The notes under the pieces: model-generated
What the model was told of the DNA's origin: nothing
What the model saw: the letters and a program-made list of their open reading frames with translations, nothing else
Database searches by the model: none
Assembly: GCA_021781915.1 (NCBI GenBank)
Contig: JAJXVX010000001.1
Span: 1 to 50,331, forward strand
Direction of reading: 5' to 3'
DNA: 50,331 nucleotides
From: a bacterium
GTDB taxonomy: Bacteria > Patescibacteriota > Saccharimonadia > Saccharimonadales > UBA4665
Position numbers and translations under genes: made by a program
In this document: positions 10,269 through 28,721 of the stretch, one piece after another
Layout of the letters: each line of letters starts with the position of its first letter
Numbering within the stretch: position 1 is the stretch's first letter

Positions 10269-10864
10269 ACTGCTTTTATTATTTTATCAGCTAACCCGTA
10301 TTTAACAGCTTCGTCGGCCGATAACCATTTGTCTCTTTCCATATCCTGGTGAATGATTTCCGCTTTTTGACCAGTATTTCCGGCCATAATAGATTCTAAC
10401 AGTCTTTTTAGTCGGAGGCTTTCTTGTAAATCAATTTCCTGATCAGTTACCTTGCCTCGTGTTCCTGAACTAGGCTGATGAATCATTACCGTTGAATTGG
10501 GTAATAAAAATCTTTTGCCTTTGGTACCGGAACTAAGCAGAAATGCAGCAGCTGAAGCTTGAACACCGATACCAAATGTTTGAACATCGTTTTTAACAAA
10601 CTTCATCGTGTCGTAAATAGCTAGCGCGTCATAAACACTACCACCCGGACTATTTATATACAGATAAATATCTTTACTCGAATTTTCGGCCTGCAGGAAT
10701 AACAACTGAGCTACAATTAGATTGGCCGTTACTTGATTTACTTCATCACCTAAAAAGATAATTCTCTCTTTTAAAAGGCGAGAGTAGATATCATAGGCCC
10801 TTTCATATCGTCCTTCATTTTCAATAACCGTTGGCACTAACACAGATTGTGGATTGTTTATCAT
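10265..10864 (-). CDS. clpP: ATP-dependent Clp protease proteolytic subunit
   Basis: [39 protein letters not shown]... carries an active-site Ser ([11 protein letters not shown]), MIHQP His and [11 protein letters not shown] prefer the ATG at 10864. The ORF-track GTG start at 10894 lies inside the CIRCE element. Confidence 0.93.
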
Positions 10865-10872
10865 ATAAATAC

Positions 10873-10901
10873 ATAGTAGATTATTGGCACTCACATGTCA
10901 A
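10873..10901 (-). promoter_or_regulatory. Candidate clpP promoter TTGACA-N17-TACTAT, with the -10 box 8 nt from the ATG
   Basis: On the minus strand, TTGACA is at 10901-10896 (inside the CIRCE spacer) and TACTAT at 10878-10873. The ATG is at 10864 and no SD lies in the 8-nt gap. Confidence 0.5.
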
Positions 10902-10910
10902 GAGTGCTAA
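10884..10910. promoter_or_regulatory. CIRCE-type inverted repeat (HrcA operator consensus TTAGCACTC-N9-GAGTGCTAA)
   Basis: The minus strand reads TTAGCACTC TTGACATGT GAGTGCCAA, matching 17 of 18 arm positions. It lies in the 48-nt tig-clpP spacer. Confidence 0.8.
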
Positions 10911-19336: not shown

Positions 19337-22300
19337 ATGCAAGGTTCAAACGATAAAAATAGATCAAGACGTCGGAATAATCTAAAAACAAAAAGTGGTA
19401 AAGTTATCTCTATTAACCGAACTATTTCCGAAAGTCGGAAAGACAAAAAATCAGAAAAAGCCACTCGAAAAGCTCTCTACTTAAGAAGTTTACCTAAAAA
19501 TAAATTCTTAAGGGTAGCCTACCGATTACATCCAAAACACCAATTCGAATATTGGTTTAGCCGAGATGGTCTGATTATGTTCCTTAAGCTTTTTGGAATT
19601 CTTATAGTTATAGGATTCTTTCTAATAATCGGATTGTTTGCTTACTTTAGAAAAGACTTACCTCAATTAAATAATATAACTGGAAGTAACGTCGGTGGTA
19701 GCGTAACTTATTATGACAGCACAGGTAAAACGGTTCTGTGGCAAGATTACAGCGCCGTCAAACGTATACCAGTTCCTTCGAGTCAAATTAACAATTACAT
19801 GAAAGAAGCGACTGTAGCCATCGAAGATAAAAATTTTTATCACGAAGGTGCGTTTTCGATTACCGGTACAGTTAGAGCCGCTGTCAACGACCTTACCGGT
19901 GGATCTCTGCAAGGTGGATCTACATTAACTCAGCAACTAGTCAAACTAAATGAAAACTGGACAGATAATCGTACTATTATAAGGAAAGTCAAAGAACTAA
20001 TTTTAGCCGTTGAAGTAGCAAGAGAATACTCGAAAAATGATATTTTGGTCGGTTATCTTAACCTCGCTCCTTACGGTGGAGTCGACTATGGTGTTGAAGC
20101 CGCTGCCGAAGATTATTTCCAAACCTCAGCAGCCAATCTAACGCTAGCTCAAGCATCGATGCTGGCTGCCATACCCCAAGCACCTACCTATTATTCGCCC
20201 TACTCAGATAGTAAATATAACCCAGCTGTTACAGGCAATTACTTTTCTCAGTCAGCACTCTTAAATAGACAACATTACGTCTTGCAACAAATGGTATCGT
20301 TGCATTACATTACTCAATCGCAAGCCGATGCAGCTGCTTCGGTTGATATTATGTCCCAGATTCATCAACAACAAGGGCTTTATCAAAATATTAAGGCACC
20401 TTACTTCGTCTTAGCAGCCAAACAACAACTGATCAGCCAATTTGGTAGCTCAGTCTATCTAAAAGGTGGTTTAAAAGTTATAACTACTCTTGATATGTCA
20501 ATGCAAACTCACGCTGAGCAATTGGTGGCCCAAAATTACCCAAGCGTCCAACGAATGACTGCCGGCCGAGCCGACGAAGAAGCCACCGTAACCGAAGATG
20601 TTAAGACTGGTTGGATAGTCGATTTAGTCGGAGGCGTGGATTTCAACAATCCGACAGATGGACAGATTAACTATGCGGCCTCCGTTTTAATTCCACCCGG
20701 TTCAAGTTTTAAACCGTATGATTATTCAACTTTAATTAATAATAACAACAATGTCGGAGCCGGATCGGTCTTATACGATCAAACTGGACCTCTACCGGGT
20801 TATCCGTGTACCAACAAAGCCTTACCTGTTAATGGTGGTAATTGTCTTGAAGACTATGATTTCTTGTCTCCAGGTCCACTTACTTTGAGGTATGCCTTAG
20901 GTGGATCACGTAATATTCCTGCTGTCAAAGCGATGCTTGAAGCTGTACCTAACGATAATTCCTACGAACATGTTAATTCAATCAATAAAGTGATTTCAAC
21001 CGCCAGTGCTCTAATGGATAACACCACCGCACAATCCTTACATCAAAACACCTATAACTGCTATAAACCAGGCACAGACATGACAACAGCTTCTTATTCT
21101 GACACTACCCAATGTTACGCTGCTTCAGCTATTGGAGACGGTGGATTCCTTTACCTTGATGATCATGTCAACGGCTTAGCTTCTATTGCAAGACTGGGTG
21201 AAGCCATACCAAGAACCTTCATTGTTAGAATAACCAACTCAGACAATAAAGTCCTCTACCAGTGGACTCAACCTAAAGGTACTCAAGTTTTGAAACCAGA
21301 TGCTGCCTACATTGTAGACAATATGCTATCCGACCCAAATGCCAGCTACTTACCGGGCTCCTGTTCAGCGACTAACTGTACTCCTCTATCGCATTTCGGC
21401 TACAAATTCCACCGTTTCAACGGCTGGGACTTCGCTATAAAGACCGGTACTACAAATAATGGTTACGATGGACTAATGGCTTCCTGGTCAACTCAATACG
21501 CTACAGTCAGCTGGGTTGGTAATCACACTAGAAATGTTAACCTCTGTCTTTCCTCTGAATGTACAATGGAATATCTAACTGAACCACTAACCCGAGGCAT
21601 GATGGAATTCGCCCACCAAAATCTAAAACCACAAAACTGGGTTCAGCCTAGTGATATAAAGGTTTTGCCTGCATTCGTAGTTACGAAACATGTCCACTAC
21701 GGTGATGTCGAACCAAGTCCAGCCAACGAATTATTCCCATCTTGGTATGTTGGCAATGCTAAAACCTCTAACTCATCAGTTAAAATTGATAAAGTCTCTG
21801 GACTAGTCGCTACTACCTGTACGCCAGCCGATGCAATCGAGCAACAATCCAACACTGATACAGCAAATTGGAATATTGATATTTTTGTTAACGGTGGTAC
21901 ACCGAATATATCAACTAATGGATCAGGGACAACTTCTTCCTCACCAACCAAAACAGATAATGTTCATAACTGTAACGATAACCTTCCTACCGTCACCCTA
22001 ACCGCCAATAATCTTTACGGATCCAAAAATAATATCTGTGACGGTTCGTGTAATTTCATGGCCACAGTTAAACAAGGTACTCATCTGTTGACTGATCCAA
22101 CAAACTATCCTCAGTTCCCTGGCAATATCGCAATGGCGATTAACGGTCAAACGATTCAAATTTCATCCAACGGTTCTACTGCAGGCCCGTCAATCCCAAT
22201 TACACAACCAGACATTCAGTCGATACCAATTACCTTCACGCCCACTTCAAGTGGATCAGGTAACTTAATAGCGACGGTCACCGACAGCGTACTTTACCAA

Positions 22301-22564
22301 GGCAATAGTTCTCCATTATCGATTACTTTTGTTGCGATACCTACAATTACATCCGTTACCAATAACAACAGTGATATCTCATGGACTGGAGGAATTGGTC
22401 CATATACAATCAAAGATGTAACTACTGGTTTAACTCTCTGCGATACTTCATTAACTACCCAGCCAGACGCAACTTCTTGTACCACCAAAATACCAATTAT
22501 CTCCGGTGATCAACTTAGTATCTCAGATGCCTATGTACAGGGTACTGACTACACTGTTCAATGA
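19337..22564 (+). CDS. Class A penicillin-binding protein (GT51 transglycosylase plus transpeptidase) with a long C-terminal extension
   Basis: 1075 aa. A basic N-terminal cytoplasmic segment is followed by one TM helix. The GT51 motifs are EDKNFYHEG and GGSTLTQQL, and the transpeptidase motifs are SSFKP (SxxK) and KTGTT. The last roughly 285 aa are T/S/N/G-rich and contain Cys pairs. SD AGGAG lies upstream. Confidence 0.9.
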   Translation: MQGSNDKNRSRRRNNLKTKSGKVISINRTISESRKDKKSEKATRKALYLRSLPKNKFLRVAYRLHPKHQFEYWFSRDGLIMFLKLFGILIVIGFFLIIGLFAYFRKDLPQLNNITGSNVGGSVTYYDSTGKTVLWQDYSAVKRIPVPSSQINNYMKEATVAIEDKNFYHEGAFSITGTVRAAVNDLTGGSLQGGSTLTQQLVKLNENWTDNRTIIRKVKELILAVEVAREYSKNDILVGYLNLAPYGGVDYGVEAAAEDYFQTSAANLTLAQASMLAAIPQAPTYYSPYSDSKYNPAVTGNYFSQSALLNRQHYVLQQMVSLHYITQSQADAAASVDIMSQIHQQQGLYQNIKAPYFVLAAKQQLISQFGSSVYLKGGLKVITTLDMSMQTHAEQLVAQNYPSVQRMTAGRADEEATVTEDVKTGWIVDLVGGVDFNNPTDGQINYAASVLIPPGSSFKPYDYSTLINNNNNVGAGSVLYDQTGPLPGYPCTNKALPVNGGNCLEDYDFLSPGPLTLRYALGGSRNIPAVKAMLEAVPNDNSYEHVNSINKVISTASALMDNTTAQSLHQNTYNCYKPGTDMTTASYSDTTQCYAASAIGDGGFLYLDDHVNGLASIARLGEAIPRTFIVRITNSDNKVLYQWTQPKGTQVLKPDAAYIVDNMLSDPNASYLPGSCSATNCTPLSHFGYKFHRFNGWDFAIKTGTTNNGYDGLMASWSTQYATVSWVGNHTRNVNLCLSSECTMEYLTEPLTRGMMEFAHQNLKPQNWVQPSDIKVLPAFVVTKHVHYGDVEPSPANELFPSWYVGNAKTSNSSVKIDKVSGLVATTCTPADAIEQQSNTDTANWNIDIFVNGGTPNISTNGSGTTSSSPTKTDNVHNCNDNLPTVTLTANNLYGSKNNICDGSCNFMATVKQGTHLLTDPTNYPQFPGNIAMAINGQTIQISSNGSTAGPSIPITQPDIQSIPITFTPTSSGSGNLIATVTDSVLYQGNSSPLSITFVAIPTITSVTNNNSDISWTGGIGPYTIKDVTTGLTLCDTSLTTQPDATSCTTKIPIISGDQLSISDAYVQGTDYTVQ

Positions 22565-22571
22565 ATATCTA

Positions 22572-23909
22572 CTAAAAATAATTCAAAATTATCTCGGCCA
22601 AGTTTCTAGCTTGATTATTGCCTGACAAATTCTCCTTAGTCTTGGGTCCTAAACAACCATCAAAACCAAGTTTTTTTGCTTCTTTAAGTCTTTTATCCAC
22701 ATAAGCGACATGCCTTATCTCTCCCGAAAGTCCTACTTCACCAAAAATAACTAAATTTTTCTTAATTTTCGTACCAAGATGAGCTGATATAATAGCTAGA
22801 CAAATTGCTAAGTCAGCAGCCGGCTCGTTTAAGCTAATACCACCCACAACATTGATATAGACATCCTTAGAAGACAGCTTAACTTTTGTCCGTTGTTCGA
22901 TCACGGCAATTAATAGATTCAATCTGTTTATGTCGAAACCACTGGCTGTCCTTTTCGGGTAACCAAAATTTGTCGCGCTGACTAAGGCCTGAACTTCAAC
23001 TAAGACTGCTCTGGAGCCCTCCATTGCAGCCGTTACAACTGATCCGTCAATGTCTAGTCTTTCGTCAAGTAAGATTTCTGAAGGATTACTAATAGTCTTA
23101 AAGCCACTGCTCGTCATCTCGAATATTGCGACTTCATTAGTCGACCCAAACCTATTCTTAAGCGATCTCAGCAATTTAAAACCACCATACCTATCACCCT
23201 CAAGCGAAAGAACGACATCAACCATATGTTCCAGGATTTTTGGACCAGCAATCGAACCGTCTTTAGTGACATGTCCTATTATAATTACTGCTGTGTTAGA
23301 ACTTTTAGCCGATGTAATGATAGCCTGTGCTGAATTGGAAATTTGTCCGACCGAACCCGCCGATGAGCCTACCCAGCTGCAAGAAATAGTCTGAATTGAA
23401 TCGATGATAACTAAATCGTAATCGGCGCTATCTATGCTGGCGGCTATATCATCAGTTGAATTACTATTAGAGATTGATAGGTTTTCACTACTGCCTTTGA
23501 TTCGAAGCTTTCTTTGATCTACTTGATAAGTTGTTTCTTCTGAGGATACATAGAGTACTTTTTTGTTTTTGGCTATATTAAGGGCCATCTGGAGTATTAA
23601 GGTACTCTTTCCTATGCCTGGCTGACCAGTTAAAAGTATAACGCTACCCGATAGCACTCCACCGCCTAAAACTTCATCGATATCTTCAAAGCCAACTGGA
23701 TAACGTTGATTACTATCCATTCCGAGAGGGCTGTCTAGTTTAAGGATATTTAACGGCCGACCAGTTTTAAGTTTTGATGAACTAATTGAAATTGGAGCTT
23801 GTTCTTCTAAGGTATTCCACTCCATACACCTTGGACAACGACCACTCCACTGATTGAAGGTCGCCAAACAGCTCGAACATACAAAACTGACTGCCTCTTT
23901 TTTTGCCAT
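22572..23909 (-). CDS. radA: DNA repair protein RadA/Sms
   Basis: N-terminal zinc ribbon CSSC...CPRC, Walker A GQPGIGKST, the KNRFG motif (LKNRFGS) and a Lon-like C-terminal domain. Confidence 0.95.
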   Translation of the reverse strand: MAKKEAVSFVCSSCLATFNQWSGRCPRCMEWNTLEEQAPISISSSKLKTGRPLNILKLDSPLGMDSNQRYPVGFEDIDEVLGGGVLSGSVILLTGQPGIGKSTLILQMALNIAKNKKVLYVSSEETTYQVDQRKLRIKGSSENLSISNSNSTDDIAASIDSADYDLVIIDSIQTISCSWVGSSAGSVGQISNSAQAIITSAKSSNTAVIIIGHVTKDGSIAGPKILEHMVDVVLSLEGDRYGGFKLLRSLKNRFGSTNEVAIFEMTSSGFKTISNPSEILLDERLDIDGSVVTAAMEGSRAVLVEVQALVSATNFGYPKRTASGFDINRLNLLIAVIEQRTKVKLSSKDVYINVVGGISLNEPAADLAICLAIISAHLGTKIKKNLVIFGEVGLSGEIRHVAYVDKRLKEAKKLGFDGCLGPKTKENLSGNNQARNLAEIILNYF

Positions 23910-23935
23910 ATCTAAACAATATTATAGTTTAAAAA

Positions 23936-24913
23936 CTACTTGGTTGGTATAGTCGGTGGGCTTATCTCAGTCTCTAGAGAAACTAGGGCAATCGATATTT
24001 GATTTCGTTGACTGACTAGTTGGTTATAATTGGTTATTTCAGCAGAAATATTTGTAACTAGGTTATTGTACTGATTAACCTTGCTGTTATAGGAATTAAT
24101 TAGATCGTTAATAGCCGGGTCACTCGGGTTAGAATTAATATAATTTAGTTGATTATTCAATGATAAGTATAGTGCTTTAGCCTGATTTTGTTGATTAGTT
24201 ATAGTGGCATTCATAGATAAGAGTGTACTGTCGTAAGAGGATAGCTGAGTTTTCTTATTAAGAAATACCTGCTGATAGGCTTGCTCATAAGCAACAACTT
24301 TACTTCTATTGTAAAAGTATTTTGTATAAAAAGATTCCAGTTGCGGCGTTAGTGTGGCGCACTCGGTCGGAAAGGTTGAATTCATTTCGTCATAAACTGA
24401 ACCAGGCTCAGTTTTCATATAAATTGCCACCTCATCTTTAATCCTTTGATTAGTCAAATCGTGTTTATAAAAATTTAATAGCAATCCATCGAGGTAATCT
24501 TTTTGAGATGATGATAGTCTGGAATAAACACCGTGGAGCATTTCATGGGCAGCCGTTACCTGCATAATGCCATTTAAGGTAGGATCAGCTACACTTAAAA
24601 TATAAATACCATTTTCATTCGGATAATAACATCCCAGGATTATCTCCTCAGAGGGATGATAGTTGGGACAAAGTTTAGAAAAATGTATCTTATCCAAAAA
24701 GGTTGGATGATTGATATAAAATATCTGTCGGGAAATTGGCGTCATACTATCTTCAGTCGCCAGCTGATTAACTAATGCTGGAACTTTATAGTTATATAGA
24801 ATGGCCTCATCATAGAGGCTGAAACGATTGTAATAAACTAAATATCCAACCAAAAACAGAACTATTAAAACAATAAACGGTTTTAAGCCCTTTTTTCGAC
24901 TCATCCTAACCAT
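23936..24913 (-). CDS. Membrane-anchored hypothetical protein with an HExxH motif and a Q/N-rich coiled-coil-like tail
   Basis: 325 aa with an N-terminal TM helix (FIVLIVLFLVGYLVYY). The only catalytic-looking signature is AAHEMLHGVY, and the C-terminal roughly 110 aa are N/Q/S-rich. An alternative start is at 24904. Confidence 0.5.
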   Translation of the reverse strand: MVRMSRKKGLKPFIVLIVLFLVGYLVYYNRFSLYDEAILYNYKVPALVNQLATEDSMTPISRQIFYINHPTFLDKIHFSKLCPNYHPSEEIILGCYYPNENGIYILSVADPTLNGIMQVTAAHEMLHGVYSRLSSSQKDYLDGLLLNFYKHDLTNQRIKDEVAIYMKTEPGSVYDEMNSTFPTECATLTPQLESFYTKYFYNRSKVVAYEQAYQQVFLNKKTQLSSYDSTLLSMNATITNQQNQAKALYLSLNNQLNYINSNPSDPAINDLINSYNSKVNQYNNLVTNISAEITNYNQLVSQRNQISIALVSLETEISPPTIPTK

Positions 24914-24927
24914 TCTAAGATAAAAAT

Positions 24928-27429
24928 CTATTTAGATACAGTAGATTCGTTTAGTATCTTGTAGTCTAGCTGACCAGCTTTAGCAGAGACTGAAACTATA
25001 TCACCTTTGGACAATTTATTAGCAAGCAGATTGGTCGATATATAGTCTTCAATAGTGTCTTGGATTAATCTTCTAAGCGGTCTAACGCCGTTTTTAGCAT
25101 CGTAACCCTCTTTAAGAAGGTAGTTCTTACCGCTTTCACTGAGCAAAATACCAATTCCAAATTTGACCATCCTGCTTTTCAGTTCATTTATTTGCAGGTC
25201 GATAATCTTTTTAACATCAATCTTGGTTAAGGCCCTAAAAACAACTACTTTATCAATCCGATTCAACATCTCAGGTCGAAGCAGACGGTTTAATTCTTCC
25301 ATTACATTCAGCTTATTCGCTTGATGAATTTGATCCAAATCTTCTAGCTGTGATTTGTCTGATATGCTAAAACCATAGGCAGCTTCTTTCTGTAGCTTAT
25401 CAGCGCCCAGGTTCGAGGTCATGATTATTATAGTATTGGTAAAATCAATCTTCTTGCCTTTAGCATCACTTAAGTAGCCGTCCTCCAAAATTTGAAGCAT
25501 CATATTGAAAACATCCGGATGGGCTTTTTCAATTTCATCAAATAGAACAAGACTGTAGGGTTGACGTCGTATTTTATCAGTCAACTGACCGCCCTGCTCA
25601 TATCCAACATAACCAGCTGGCGCACCGACTAGTCTCGAGACCGTGTGATGCTCACCGAATTCACTCATATCAATTTTAATAAGGGCTGACTCTGAACCAT
25701 AAAATTCTCTAGCCAGAACTCTGGCTAATTCTGTTTTTCCAACACCCGTCGGACCGAGGAAAACAAATGAACCAATTGGTCTTTTCTCGCTAGAGACGCC
25801 TGAACGGTTGCGACGAATGGCTGAAGCGACTACTTTAGTTGCTTCATCTTGTCCTATGACTTGTTTGCCTAGTATTTTTTCAAGTTGCAATAAATATGAG
25901 GCTTCTGATGCGATTACTTTTTTTAGTGGAATTCCGGTCATTCGTGAAACAACATCAGACAAGTCTTCTACACTCAATGTTAATCTTTGTTTATTCTTTT
26001 GAGCTTTATCCAACTTGTTCAACTCGGAATTAATCTGTGATGCTTTAGTTTTATACTGAGCTGCTTTTTCATAATCTTCAGAATCGACAGCGTCTTCTAT
26101 GCGAGCATTTAGTAATTTAAGTTCTTTTTGCAGATTTCTAATTTCTGGGCTGGTTTTGACTTTTAAGACCTTTAAGTGAGCAGCAGCTTCGTCGATTAAG
26201 TCTATTGCCTTATCTGGCATAAAACGATCATGAATATAACGTGATGCTAATCGAACAGCATCTTCTAAGACTTCATCGGAAATACTAACACCGTGATACG
26301 ATTCATAGTGTTTCTTTAACCCCTTTAATATGGCCAGCGTTTCCGACGGTGATGTTTCCTGAACTTGAATAGGCTGAAGTCTTCTCTCTAAGGCAGCGTC
26401 TTTTTCTATATATTTGGTATACTCAGCGGTGGTCGTAGCTCCTATTAGATGAATTGTGCCTCTGGCAAGAGCTGGTTTTAATATATTACCTGCATCCATC
26501 GATCCTTCGGCTGAACCGGCGCCAACTATCAGATGTAGCTCATCGATAAAAAGAATAGTCTTTTTGTCTTTCTCTAGCTCTTGCATGACTTTCTTTAGTC
26601 TCTCTTCAAATTCACCACGATATTTAGTTCCGGCAACCATTGCGGCCAAATCGAGTACAACAATTTTTTTATCAAGTAAACTATCGGGGACGTCCTCAGC
26701 GACAATTCTTTGAGCTAGACCCTCGACGATGGCCGTTTTTCCAACTCCTGGCTCACCGATTAAAACAGGGTTATTCTTTGTTCGTCGATTAAGTATGGTA
26801 ATTAAACGGCTTATTTGATCGTCTCGCCCAACAACCGGATCTAACTTATGGCTTTTGGCCATTACAGTCAGATCAGTGCCAAAGGATTCTAAGGCTGATT
26901 TTTGAAAATTCTTGGTCGCTTTTTTAGAACCAATACGATAATCTCTGGTATCTTCTTCATATTGTTGACGGTTTAAAAGATTAGTCAGTTCATTTAGTAC
27001 TGAGCTAACATCAGCATTAACATTCTTTAGCAGTTCGGTTGCTTTAGAATTCTTCTGATTTAGAATTGAAAAGATTATATGTTCTGTACCGCAAAATTCT
27101 TGGTTAAACTCCTGAGAAACATCATAGGCCATTTTTAAAGTTAATTTGGCGGTTTCGGAAAAACCTTTCATCGGCTCATTTAATGCTATGCTTTTAGGTT
27201 GAACCTTTATAGCTAAACGAGTTTTTTCAAACGTCACACCAGCTTTATCAAAAATTTTAGCACCAATTGACTCTTTTTGAGCTAAAACTCCTAATAATAG
27301 ATGTTCAGTGCCGACATATGAGCTGCCCAAACTTCGAGCAATCAATTCGGCCTGACGCAATGAAGATATCGCATTGTTAGTTAAGTGATTTAAAAATTCT
27401 CTAAAATCAGGATCGTTATTTGGAAACAT
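24928..27429 (-). CDS. clpC: AAA+ ATPase ClpC (Clp protease ATP-binding subunit)
   Basis: 833 aa with two Clp_N repeats and two Walker A sites ([18 protein letters not shown]). Has a short middle/UVR-like region ([12 protein letters not shown]) and a ClpP-docking YGF loop (AAYGFSIS). Confidence 0.9.
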
Positions 27430-27490
27430 ATTATCTTTCTTATTATAGCTTTATCTAACAGCAATTTATTGAAAAATTGCTTATAAGTAA

Positions 27491-27519
27491 ATAATAAGAA
27501 ATTAGCACTCACATGTCAA
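27491..27519 (-). promoter_or_regulatory. Candidate clpC promoter TTGACA-N17-TATTAT
   Basis: On the minus strand, TTGACA is at 27519-27514 (inside the CIRCE spacer) and TATTAT at 27496-27491. This leaves a leader of about 55 nt to the ATG at 27429. Confidence 0.5.
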
Positions 27520-27528
27520 GAGTGCCAA
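27502..27528. promoter_or_regulatory. CIRCE-type inverted repeat (second copy)
   Basis: The plus strand reads TTAGCACTC ACATGTCAA GAGTGCCAA, matching 17 of 18 arm positions. Its 21-nt core GCACTCTTGACATGTGAGTGC is identical to the clpP copy. It begins 6 nt after the nusA stop. Confidence 0.8.
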
Positions 27529-27533
27529 TTTAT

Positions 27534-28721
27534 TTATTCGCCGTGTTCTTCGATGGCTTCGAGTAATTCGTTTTCAAGGTCTGTTTTTTTCTTTAGCTTA
27601 CCCGATTTAACTGTTTCAACTTTCATATTAGTGGCTTCTACGGGCTGATTGATTTCAACCTCAGCTACCTTCTCGGGTTGACTAACAGATGCCTTAATAT
27701 CTATTTCAAAGCCAGTTAATTTTGAGGCCAAACGAACATTTTGACCACTCTTACCTATAGCTATACTCTGTTGATCCTCATCTACTAAAACAATTGCTCT
27801 AGCTGGTTCACCTTCGAAAATAACATCGTTAACCCGGGTAGGACTAAGTGCATTAGTGATAAACTTCTTTGGATCTTCATCAAAAATAATAATATCAACT
27901 TTTTCTTGATCACCAATTTCTGACATAACTGCATTAACGCGAGTACCGTGACCACCTACGAAAGTACCTACCGGATCAACTCCCTTAATAGCTGAAGAAA
28001 CAGCCAGCTTAGTCCTGACTCCGGCCTCACGAGCGATTGCTTCTATCTTTACTGCGCCGCTTTCCATCTCTGGAACTTCGTTTCTGAACAAAAGCTCAAC
28101 AAACTCAGCACAACCCCTGGACAGCAGTAGTTGCGGACCGCGAAAACCCTTTTCAACATCCTTTAAATAAACTTTAAGCCGTTGACCAGGGTAATAATGC
28201 TCATTTGGAATTTGTTCGGCTTTGGGCATAATGCCTTGAATTCGACCTAAATCAACTCTAACTAAATTATTTTCCACACGAGCAACATTAGCATTAATGA
28301 TAGTGCCAATTTTATCTTCAAATTCTTCTAAGATGATATCTCTCTCAGTCTCGCGAAGCTTTTGAACCATTACTTGTTTCGCCGTTTGCGCGGCTACCCG
28401 ACCAAAAGTTTCAACTTTTTCATGAACTTCGATTTCATCACCAATCTTTACGTCTTTTTTCATGACTGAAGCGTCTTTGAGTGAAATCTCAAAAGTAGAG
28501 TGTTCAACCTTATCGACGACTGATTTAGTAGCATATATGTCCACATCACCGGTATTCAAATTAATATTGGCTCTGATTTCTTGTTCTCGATCACCAAAGT
28601 CTCTTTTGTAAGCGGCGATCAATGCCTGTTCAACAATTGATTTAACAACATCTTCCGGTAAATTCTTTTCTTCTGCGATTGTTCTAATAGCGAGAGCTAA
28701 CTGCTTAACATCTAAATCCAT
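27534..28721 (-). CDS. nusA: Transcription termination/antitermination factor NusA
   Basis: 395 aa with an N-terminal RNAP-binding domain, an S1 domain and two KH domains (...GRVAAQTAKQV..., ...AIGKSGQNVRLASKLTG...). SD AGGAG lies 6 nt upstream. Confidence 0.95.
   Translation of the reverse strand: MDLDVKQLALAIRTIAEEKNLPEDVVKSIVEQALIAAYKRDFGDREQEIRANINLNTGDVDIYATKSVVDKVEHSTFEISLKDASVMKKDVKIGDEIEVHEKVETFGRVAAQTAKQVMVQKLRETERDIILEEFEDKIGTIINANVARVENNLVRVDLGRIQGIMPKAEQIPNEHYYPGQRLKVYLKDVEKGFRGPQLLLSRGCAEFVELLFRNEVPEMESGAVKIEAIAREAGVRTKLAVSSAIKGVDPVGTFVGGHGTRVNAVMSEIGDQEKVDIIIFDEDPKKFITNALSPTRVNDVIFEGEPARAIVLVDEDQQSIAIGKSGQNVRLASKLTGFEIDIKASVSQPEKVAEVEINQPVEATNMKVETVKSGKLKKKTDLENELLEAIEEHGE

Follow-up and report, generated by a model that had tools for sequence, protein, structure and literature searches.

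[quoted passage not shown] The clpC gene of the same bacterium lies in the operon ctsR-mcsA-mcsB-clpC-radA(sms)-disA, which is said to belong to the regulon of another repressor, CtsR. Dual CtsR/HrcA control of clp genes occurs in lactic acid bacteria, e.g. at clpP of Streptococcus salivarius and clpL of Lactobacillus gasseri. [quoted passage not shown] In the literature searched, no paper linking HrcA or CIRCE to Saccharibacteria, Patescibacteria or the candidate phyla radiation was found and the papers on the TM7x transcriptome gave no usable heat-shock data; the HrcA regulon has apparently not been described for this phylum. To our knowledge, very little has been learned so far about how genes are regulated in the candidate phyla radiation.

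The window analysed here, i.e. the whole stretch of 50,331 nt, comes from a Saccharibacteria (TM7) MAG and has a GC content of 37 %. Between nusA and clpC it carries a 27-bp palindrome (27502..27528, − strand) that is very likely a CIRCE operator for HrcA overlapping the −35 element of a sigma-70-type clpC promoter. The + strand of 27502-27528 reads TTAGCACTC-ACATGTCAA-GAGTGCCAA and the gene (−) strand reads TTGGCACTC-TTGACATGT-GAGTGCTAA. This 9-bp inverted repeat with a 9-bp spacer agrees with the CIRCE consensus used in this work, TTAGCACTC-N9-GAGTGCTAA, at 17 of the 18 positions. The nusA stop codon TAA occupies 27536-27534 and the operator starts at the sixth base past it, with 5 nt between the two. 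A sister copy, also matching at 17 of 18 positions and read on the gene strand as TTAGCACTC-TTGACATGT-GAGTGCCAA, is located in the clpP promoter between tig and clpP (10884..10910, − strand). Each of the two window copies has one mismatch to the full 27-nt consensus, and the two share a 21-nt core without any difference (27505-27525 and 10887-10907, 16,618 bp apart). The palindrome, its placement just past the nusA stop and the core common to the clpC and clpP copies had been described in an earlier note on this DNA, and re-reading of the sequence gave the same result, as it did for the promoter hexamers TTGACA (27519-27514) and TATTAT (27496-27491) and the 17 nt that separate them. The note had also argued that two copies with the same operator-in-promoter arrangement are unlikely to arise by chance. 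A scan of the 50 kb window for CIRCE with up to 3 mismatches returned only the clpC and clpP copies, that is 2 sites where 0.02 would be expected by chance, and the two 10-kb extensions added as flanks contained no further copy.

The −35 hexamer TTGACA (27514..27519, − strand) fills the first six positions of the CIRCE spacer and is followed after 17 nt by the −10 hexamer TATTAT (27491..27496, − strand), which sits 8 nt past the right half-site. Together the two hexamers are the best sigma-70-type match (11/12) within 22.0-29.2 kb. Matches of equal quality number 2 in the window against approximately 2.6 expected at 37 % GC; taken on its own the clpC promoter match is not significant, and it is conservation that supplies the evidence for this predicted promoter. 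The clpP promoter is built in the same way, as TTGACA-17-TACTAT, and the clpP ATG at 10864 follows its −10 by 8 nt. Public gene calls give a ClpP of 199 aa from this ATG. The start assigned mechanically to the clpP ORF, a GTG at 10894, was rejected, as it lies inside the operator and makes the protein longer than the 199 aa of the public calls. Because transcription is proposed to start downstream of the palindrome, CIRCE would not be included in the clpC mRNA.

The predicted clpC 5' UTR contains a palindrome of its own, GCAATTT-TTCAAT-AAATTGC (27461..27480, − strand, −8.7 kcal/mol). In approximately 14 of 38 orthologous clpC leaders, among them those of loci L135, L137, L149, L173, L186, L197 and L203, a palindrome TAGCGAA-N10-14-TTCGCTA is found directly past the −10, and it retains the outer TAGC/GCTA of the CIRCE arms. 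Possible roles of the clpC leader palindrome are those of a second, degenerate operator and of a stem-loop at the 5' end. Rfam, searched with the nusA-clpC spacer, returned sub-threshold noise only.

The first gene behind the operator, clpC (24928-27429, − strand), encodes a protein of 833 aa and has as its upstream neighbour nusA (27534-28721, − strand), recognised by both NCBIfam and Pfam. By its domains the product is a ClpC-type AAA+ unfoldase with a double ATPase: Pfam detects PF02861 (two Clp_N repeats), PF00004, PF07724, PF17871, PF10431 and PF02151 (UVR), and the ClpP-binding loop YGF is present in the context ...EAAYGFSIS.... No NCBIfam equivalog cut-off was reached by the window ClpC. 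The next gene, designated here gene X (23936-24913, − strand, 325 aa), starts 14 nt after clpC and belongs to no Pfam or NCBIfam family. Its product has an N-terminal hydrophobic helix and a zincin-like HExxH motif (HEMLH), and the motifs C...GC...TAAHExLH are invariant in the family. The AlphaFold model of the protein (pLDDT 93.5) has a long helical hairpin with abundant YN repeats; comparison with the PDB gave no significant match, the top one being anthrax lethal factor with E 0.07. The homologues are annotated as Saccharimonadales and gene X is specific to Saccharimonadia. The third gene, radA (sms; 22572-23909, − strand; TIGR00416, 484 bits), starts 26 nt after gene X, and the unit ends against the convergent PBP1A gene (19337-22564, + strand). 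The identities of the genes downstream of the operator (clpC, the HExxH protein and radA on one strand) and the 14- and 26-nt gaps given in the earlier note were thus found to be correct. Since the gaps are short and the gene order is conserved, clpC, X and radA are very probably transcribed together. The X-radA gap (23910-23935, − strand) holds a TATAAT, so a weak internal radA promoter is possible.

Among all window ORFs, neither Pfam nor NCBIfam detected hrcA, ctsR, mcsAB, groEL or dnaK; the lack of ctsR/mcsAB ahead of clpC, to which the earlier note had drawn attention, was confirmed for the window, and the gene directly upstream is nusA. Control of clpC and clpP by CtsR was rejected, there being no CtsR box in either promoter and no ctsR/mcsAB at the locus. 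The search of the window for the box (A/G)GTCAAANAN(A/G)GTCAAA with up to 3 mismatches gave 14 matches in comparison to 9.2 expected by chance, none of them in the clpC or clpP promoter. The nearest CtsR-box-like match, at 27266-27282, falls within clpC.

To assess conservation, 80 metagenomic loci orthologous to the clpC locus were gathered through gene X, hence independently of CIRCE, and 37 of them had enough upstream DNA for the operator to be assessed. CIRCE was found in all 37, at 15-18 of the 18 positions and 43-222 nt upstream of the clpC start. TTGAC is present in the spacer at 35 of the 37 loci and in most of these opens it, and in most orthologs a −10-like hexamer of the TATnAT type follows 16-18 nt after it. 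The palindrome had been taken in the earlier note for a CIRCE-type operator on the clpC promoter, and both the 17/18 match and its retention upstream of clpC at all 37 orthologous loci uphold this identification. The predicted CIRCE on the clpC promoter is conserved throughout the Saccharibacteria class. The nusA-clpC-X-radA order is near-universal among the 80 loci, gene X being placed between clpC and radA in nearly all of them, so the clpC-radA linkage remarked on for this genome is a feature of the class. No ctsR, mcsA or mcsB was found in the 80 orthologous loci.

The information content per position was 2 bits in the half-sites, which are invariant, 1.4-1.8 bits in TTGAC, 0.1-0.4 bits in the last four spacer bases and next to none in the flanks. 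The combination of invariant half-sites with free flanks and free last four spacer bases indicates a protein-binding site fused to a −35 element, not an RNA hairpin. Across the orthologs no compensatory changes were observed in the CIRCE arms, which places the constraint on the DNA sequence (the protein site and the −35) and not on RNA pairing. These data bear directly on the proposal that the palindrome functions mainly as an RNA hairpin, namely the intrinsic terminator of nusA, its likeness to CIRCE being secondary. The 3' end of nusA read as RNA (27485-27540, − strand) does form a hairpin (−16 kcal/mol, z = −5.5) whose stem has 12 bp and whose loop has 9 nt, with CUUAUUAUUU behind it, and this hairpin begins 5 nt past the nusA stop and has a U-rich, interrupted tail. 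However, in the orthologous loci, most of which have nusA upstream of clpC, the nusA-clpC gap varies between 64 and 1073 nt, whereas the distance of the palindrome to clpC and to the −10 is kept; termination is therefore not the conserved function. The stem positions are invariant and show no covariation, and the same element precedes dnaK, hrcA and hsp20 where there is no immediate upstream gene. Moreover, the clpP copy gives a weak fold (−9.2 kcal/mol, z = −2.1) and a terminator scan makes no call at nusA, the 9-nt loop being outside the scan criteria. A terminator as the main role is thus improbable, but the operator palindrome may double as the nusA terminator in this genome.

The distribution of the operator-promoter combination was followed by scanning for GCACTCTTGACANNNGAGTGC in one genome per species, which returned at least 119 loci with 116 assessable sites. 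Approximately 85 of the loci listed belong to Saccharibacteria and most of the others to further Patescibacteria; the remaining matches listed come from a few Chloroflexota, Streptococcus, a Fervidobacterium, a Dialister and a Waddliaceae. A downstream ORF is present at 116 of the 116 assessable sites listed and it is a heat-shock gene at 111 of them. Among the matches listed, the first downstream gene encodes DnaK in 47 cases (40 in Saccharibacteria, 7 in other lineages), HrcA in 32 (14 and 18), Hsp20 in 15 (12 and 3), ClpC in 13 (9 and 4) and ClpP in 4 (4 and 0), with another product in the remaining 5 (0 and 5). The ClpP cases, again among the matches listed, are 4 other Saccharibacteria species with clpP first behind the same operator-promoter. 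The canonical HrcA targets dnaK, hrcA-grpE and hsp20 are headed by this operator-promoter in the lineage, which supports the reading of the earlier note. The predicted HrcA regulon of Saccharibacteria consists of dnaK, hrcA(-grpE), hsp20, clpC-X-radA and clpP.

None of the loci listed represents the source species, the best ClpC identity being 68 %, and the association with clpC extends to Saccharibacteria whose ClpC is only approximately 48 % identical to that of the window. Locus L040, which has an identical 21-mer, was considered as a close relative and ruled out by its GC content of 48 % in comparison to 37 % in the window.

With these data at hand, the idea that the two window copies regulate nothing, being either a palindrome formed by chance or members of a dispersed repeat, can be discarded. 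Nothing speaks for it except the two identical 21-mers. Against it stand the number of sites in the window relative to chance expectation and the heat-shock genes to which 111 of the 116 assessable copies listed elsewhere point. The earlier note had named copies at non-promoter positions as the sign of such a repeat; no such copy occurs in approximately 70 kb of the source genome, and the 523 kb of orthologous loci contain 0 other CIRCE-like sites, which excludes a dispersed repeat. This explanation, to which hardly any weight could be given, is already refuted by the data.

The same collection helps to decide where clpC transcription starts. The operator could be real and the spacer TTGAC could serve HrcA recognition only, with the clpC promoter placed elsewhere, e.g. 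at a TATAAT (27442-27447) that precedes the clpC ATG by 12 nt. This hexamer lacks a −35-like hexamer at 16-18 nt, whereas a −10-like hexamer is found 16-18 nt past TTGAC in most orthologs and, among the matches listed, in 12 of 13 clpC and 47 of 47 dnaK promoters. Among the matches listed, the start codon comes 6-9 nt after the −10 in 8 of the 13 clpC genes, and the range is 6-13 nt when the many hrcA genes of this type are included. This leaves no room for another promoter, hence the operator-embedded promoter must be functional there. A separate clpC promoter is accordingly unlikely, and the −35 within the CIRCE spacer is preferred. The mRNAs with a start codon 6-13 nt after the −10 are probably leaderless, as judged from this spacing. 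Leaderless mRNAs appear to be common in the HrcA regulon, e.g. at L009, L017, L061, L075 and L100.

In 39 of the 47 dnaK promoters among the matches listed (e.g. L006, L007, L011, L012, L014, L018 and L057), the CIRCE over the −35 is accompanied by another immediately past the −10. A second CIRCE is present in 0 of 13 clpC, 0 of 4 clpP and 1 of 15 hsp20 promoters, also among the matches listed. The difference between two copies and one suggests graded repression within the regulon. The −35-in-spacer geometry was also seen outside Patescibacteria, in Fervidobacterium (L008), Dehalococcoides (L043), Chloroflexota (L016, L023 and L034) and Waddliaceae (L101), and clpC of a Thermotogota MAG is among these cases. 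Such a promoter layout may therefore be of ancient origin and not peculiar to the candidate phyla radiation.

The HrcA proteins of Saccharibacteria and other Patescibacteria are short, with approximately 225-258 aa (about 235) in comparison to approximately 340 aa in Streptococcus and Thermotoga. Those encoded behind the operator have 227-243 aa and are recognised by two Pfam families, HrcA PF01628 (E 2.5e-19) and the HrcA DNA-binding domain PF03444. A sequence match to Thermotoga maritima HrcA (1STZ) was obtained with E 1.1e-16 and covers the N-terminal winged-helix domain only. The AlphaFold model (pLDDT 90) superimposes on 1STZ with a TM-score of 0.79 normalised to the query and 0.59 to the target (E 1.7e-13). 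According to the model, the short HrcA (L036, L089, L217 and others) retains two domains of 1STZ, the winged helix and the GAF-like one, and lacks approximately 100 residues, which we take to be the inserted dimerising domain. A profile search collected 2911 short HrcAs (database clusters). Dimerisation and stress sensing of the short HrcA may differ from the models established for other bacteria.

The missing part of the protein leaves a further explanation to be weighed, namely that a regulator other than HrcA binds the site, for instance because the truncated HrcA has lost CIRCE binding. Both the absence of approximately 100 residues present in the characterised HrcAs and the restriction of the 1STZ sequence match to the winged-helix domain could be cited in its favour. 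However, no part of the protein is better conserved than this DNA-binding winged helix, and the half-sites do not deviate from the canonical CIRCE arms. In addition, hrcA itself is found behind the same operator at 32 loci among the matches listed, a classic sign of autoregulation with which its own CIRCE is consistent, and the sites listed head a regulon of heat-shock genes (111 of 116). Binding by another regulator is therefore very improbable, and HrcA is retained as the predicted ligand of the operator.

The earlier note had made its case depend on the presence of HrcA. This part of it stands for the lineage, since hrcA is present across Saccharibacteria and Patescibacteria and, at more than 30 loci of Saccharibacteria, is no more than a few kb away from dnaK. 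It does not stand for the DNA of the source organism that was read, as hrcA was not found in approximately 70 kb (the window and the two 10-kb flanks). The flanks encode ribosomal-protein and pentose-phosphate genes only, and no ctsR/mcsAB either. Three HrcA candidates for the source, P0123, P0133 and P0188, were assigned to other organisms by sample, and P0133 also by GC content. The presence of HrcA in the source organism is thus inferred from the lineage and not from the genome.

The following mode of action is proposed. Under non-stress conditions an HrcA dimer bound to the half-sites would keep RNA polymerase off the −35 region. Heat or protein-folding stress would inactivate HrcA and free the near-consensus clpC promoter, from which clpC and, very probably, gene X and radA with it would be transcribed. 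The same operator-promoter on clpP would co-regulate the partner peptidase with clpC, so that clpC, X, radA and clpP would be expressed in step with dnaK and hsp20 under stress. HrcA would in this way fill in Saccharibacteria the role that CtsR has for clp genes in Firmicutes. Behind this operator-promoter no groES/groEL was seen at any of the more than 100 Patescibacteria loci listed, which implies that stress sensing may bypass the GroE-titration loop; the literature on GroEL in Saccharibacteria yielded nothing useful. Stress sensing could be intrinsic to HrcA or could proceed through DnaK or ClpCP, both of which are regulon members. A more far-reaching version, in which the truncated mini-HrcA is the single master regulator of a proteostasis set made up of dnaK, hsp20, clpC-X-radA and clpP, acting through −35-in-spacer operators in Saccharibacteria and the wider Patescibacteria, is put forward tentatively and is itself rather doubtful.

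The operator and its conservation provide a concrete and testable regulon for ultrasmall episymbionts, in which one repressor, HrcA, would govern chaperones, the Clp protease machinery and radA. The regulation of the clpC-radA module would then have been solved differently in lineages without CtsR. If the more far-reaching version is true, gene X would encode a novel zincin-like, membrane-anchored protein that is under heat-shock regulation and linked to ClpC and RadA; this conserved gene of no known family and the shortened HrcA are both flagged as targets. Saccharibacteria are now genetically manipulable (PMC10633639), and the compact 40-bp promoter-operator, likely to be heat-inducible, might find use as an expression tool.

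Comparison with the CIRCE/HrcA class I regulon of B. subtilis (dnaK, groESL) reveals the same operator consensus, matched here at 17 of 18 positions, an HrcA homologue in the lineage, hrcA behind its own CIRCE and dnaK within the regulon. The differences lie in the targets, which here are clpC-X-radA and clpP, and in the position of the −35 inside the spacer. The repressor of the lineage, with its approximately 235 aa, differs from T. maritima HrcA (1STZ) by the lack of approximately 100 residues, and in contrast to the GroE-modulated HrcA no groES/groEL stands behind the operator in the more than 100 Patescibacteria loci listed.

The CtsR regulon is similar in that a heat-shock repressor, here a predicted one, acts on both clpC and clpP and that clpC and radA lie on one strand. 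Unlike in that regulon, the operator is CIRCE, and the clpC and clpP promoters have no CtsR heptad repeat in their vicinity. The Saccharibacteria locus also differs from the B. subtilis clpC operon in having no ctsR, mcsA, mcsB or disA and in having a lineage-specific HExxH protein between clpC and radA. The statement of the earlier note that the unit mirrors the Firmicute CtsR operon is therefore valid, as an analogy, for the clpC-radA linkage but not for the regulatory parts, which are not homologous. Lactic acid bacteria resemble the present case by having CIRCE upstream of a clp gene, there in combination with CtsR and here with HrcA apparently alone.

The nearest precedent for HrcA acting on AAA+ protease and disaggregase genes is found in Mollicutes (PMC5138195). 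They belong to another phylum and their targets are clpB and lon instead of clpC and clpP; a conserved −35 in the spacer is not reported for them (PMC5138195). Promoters with two CIRCE copies are common to both groups, being represented here by 39 of the 47 dnaK promoters among the matches listed, and in both cases HrcA/CIRCE is the conserved stress regulator of genome-reduced bacteria (PMC5138195).
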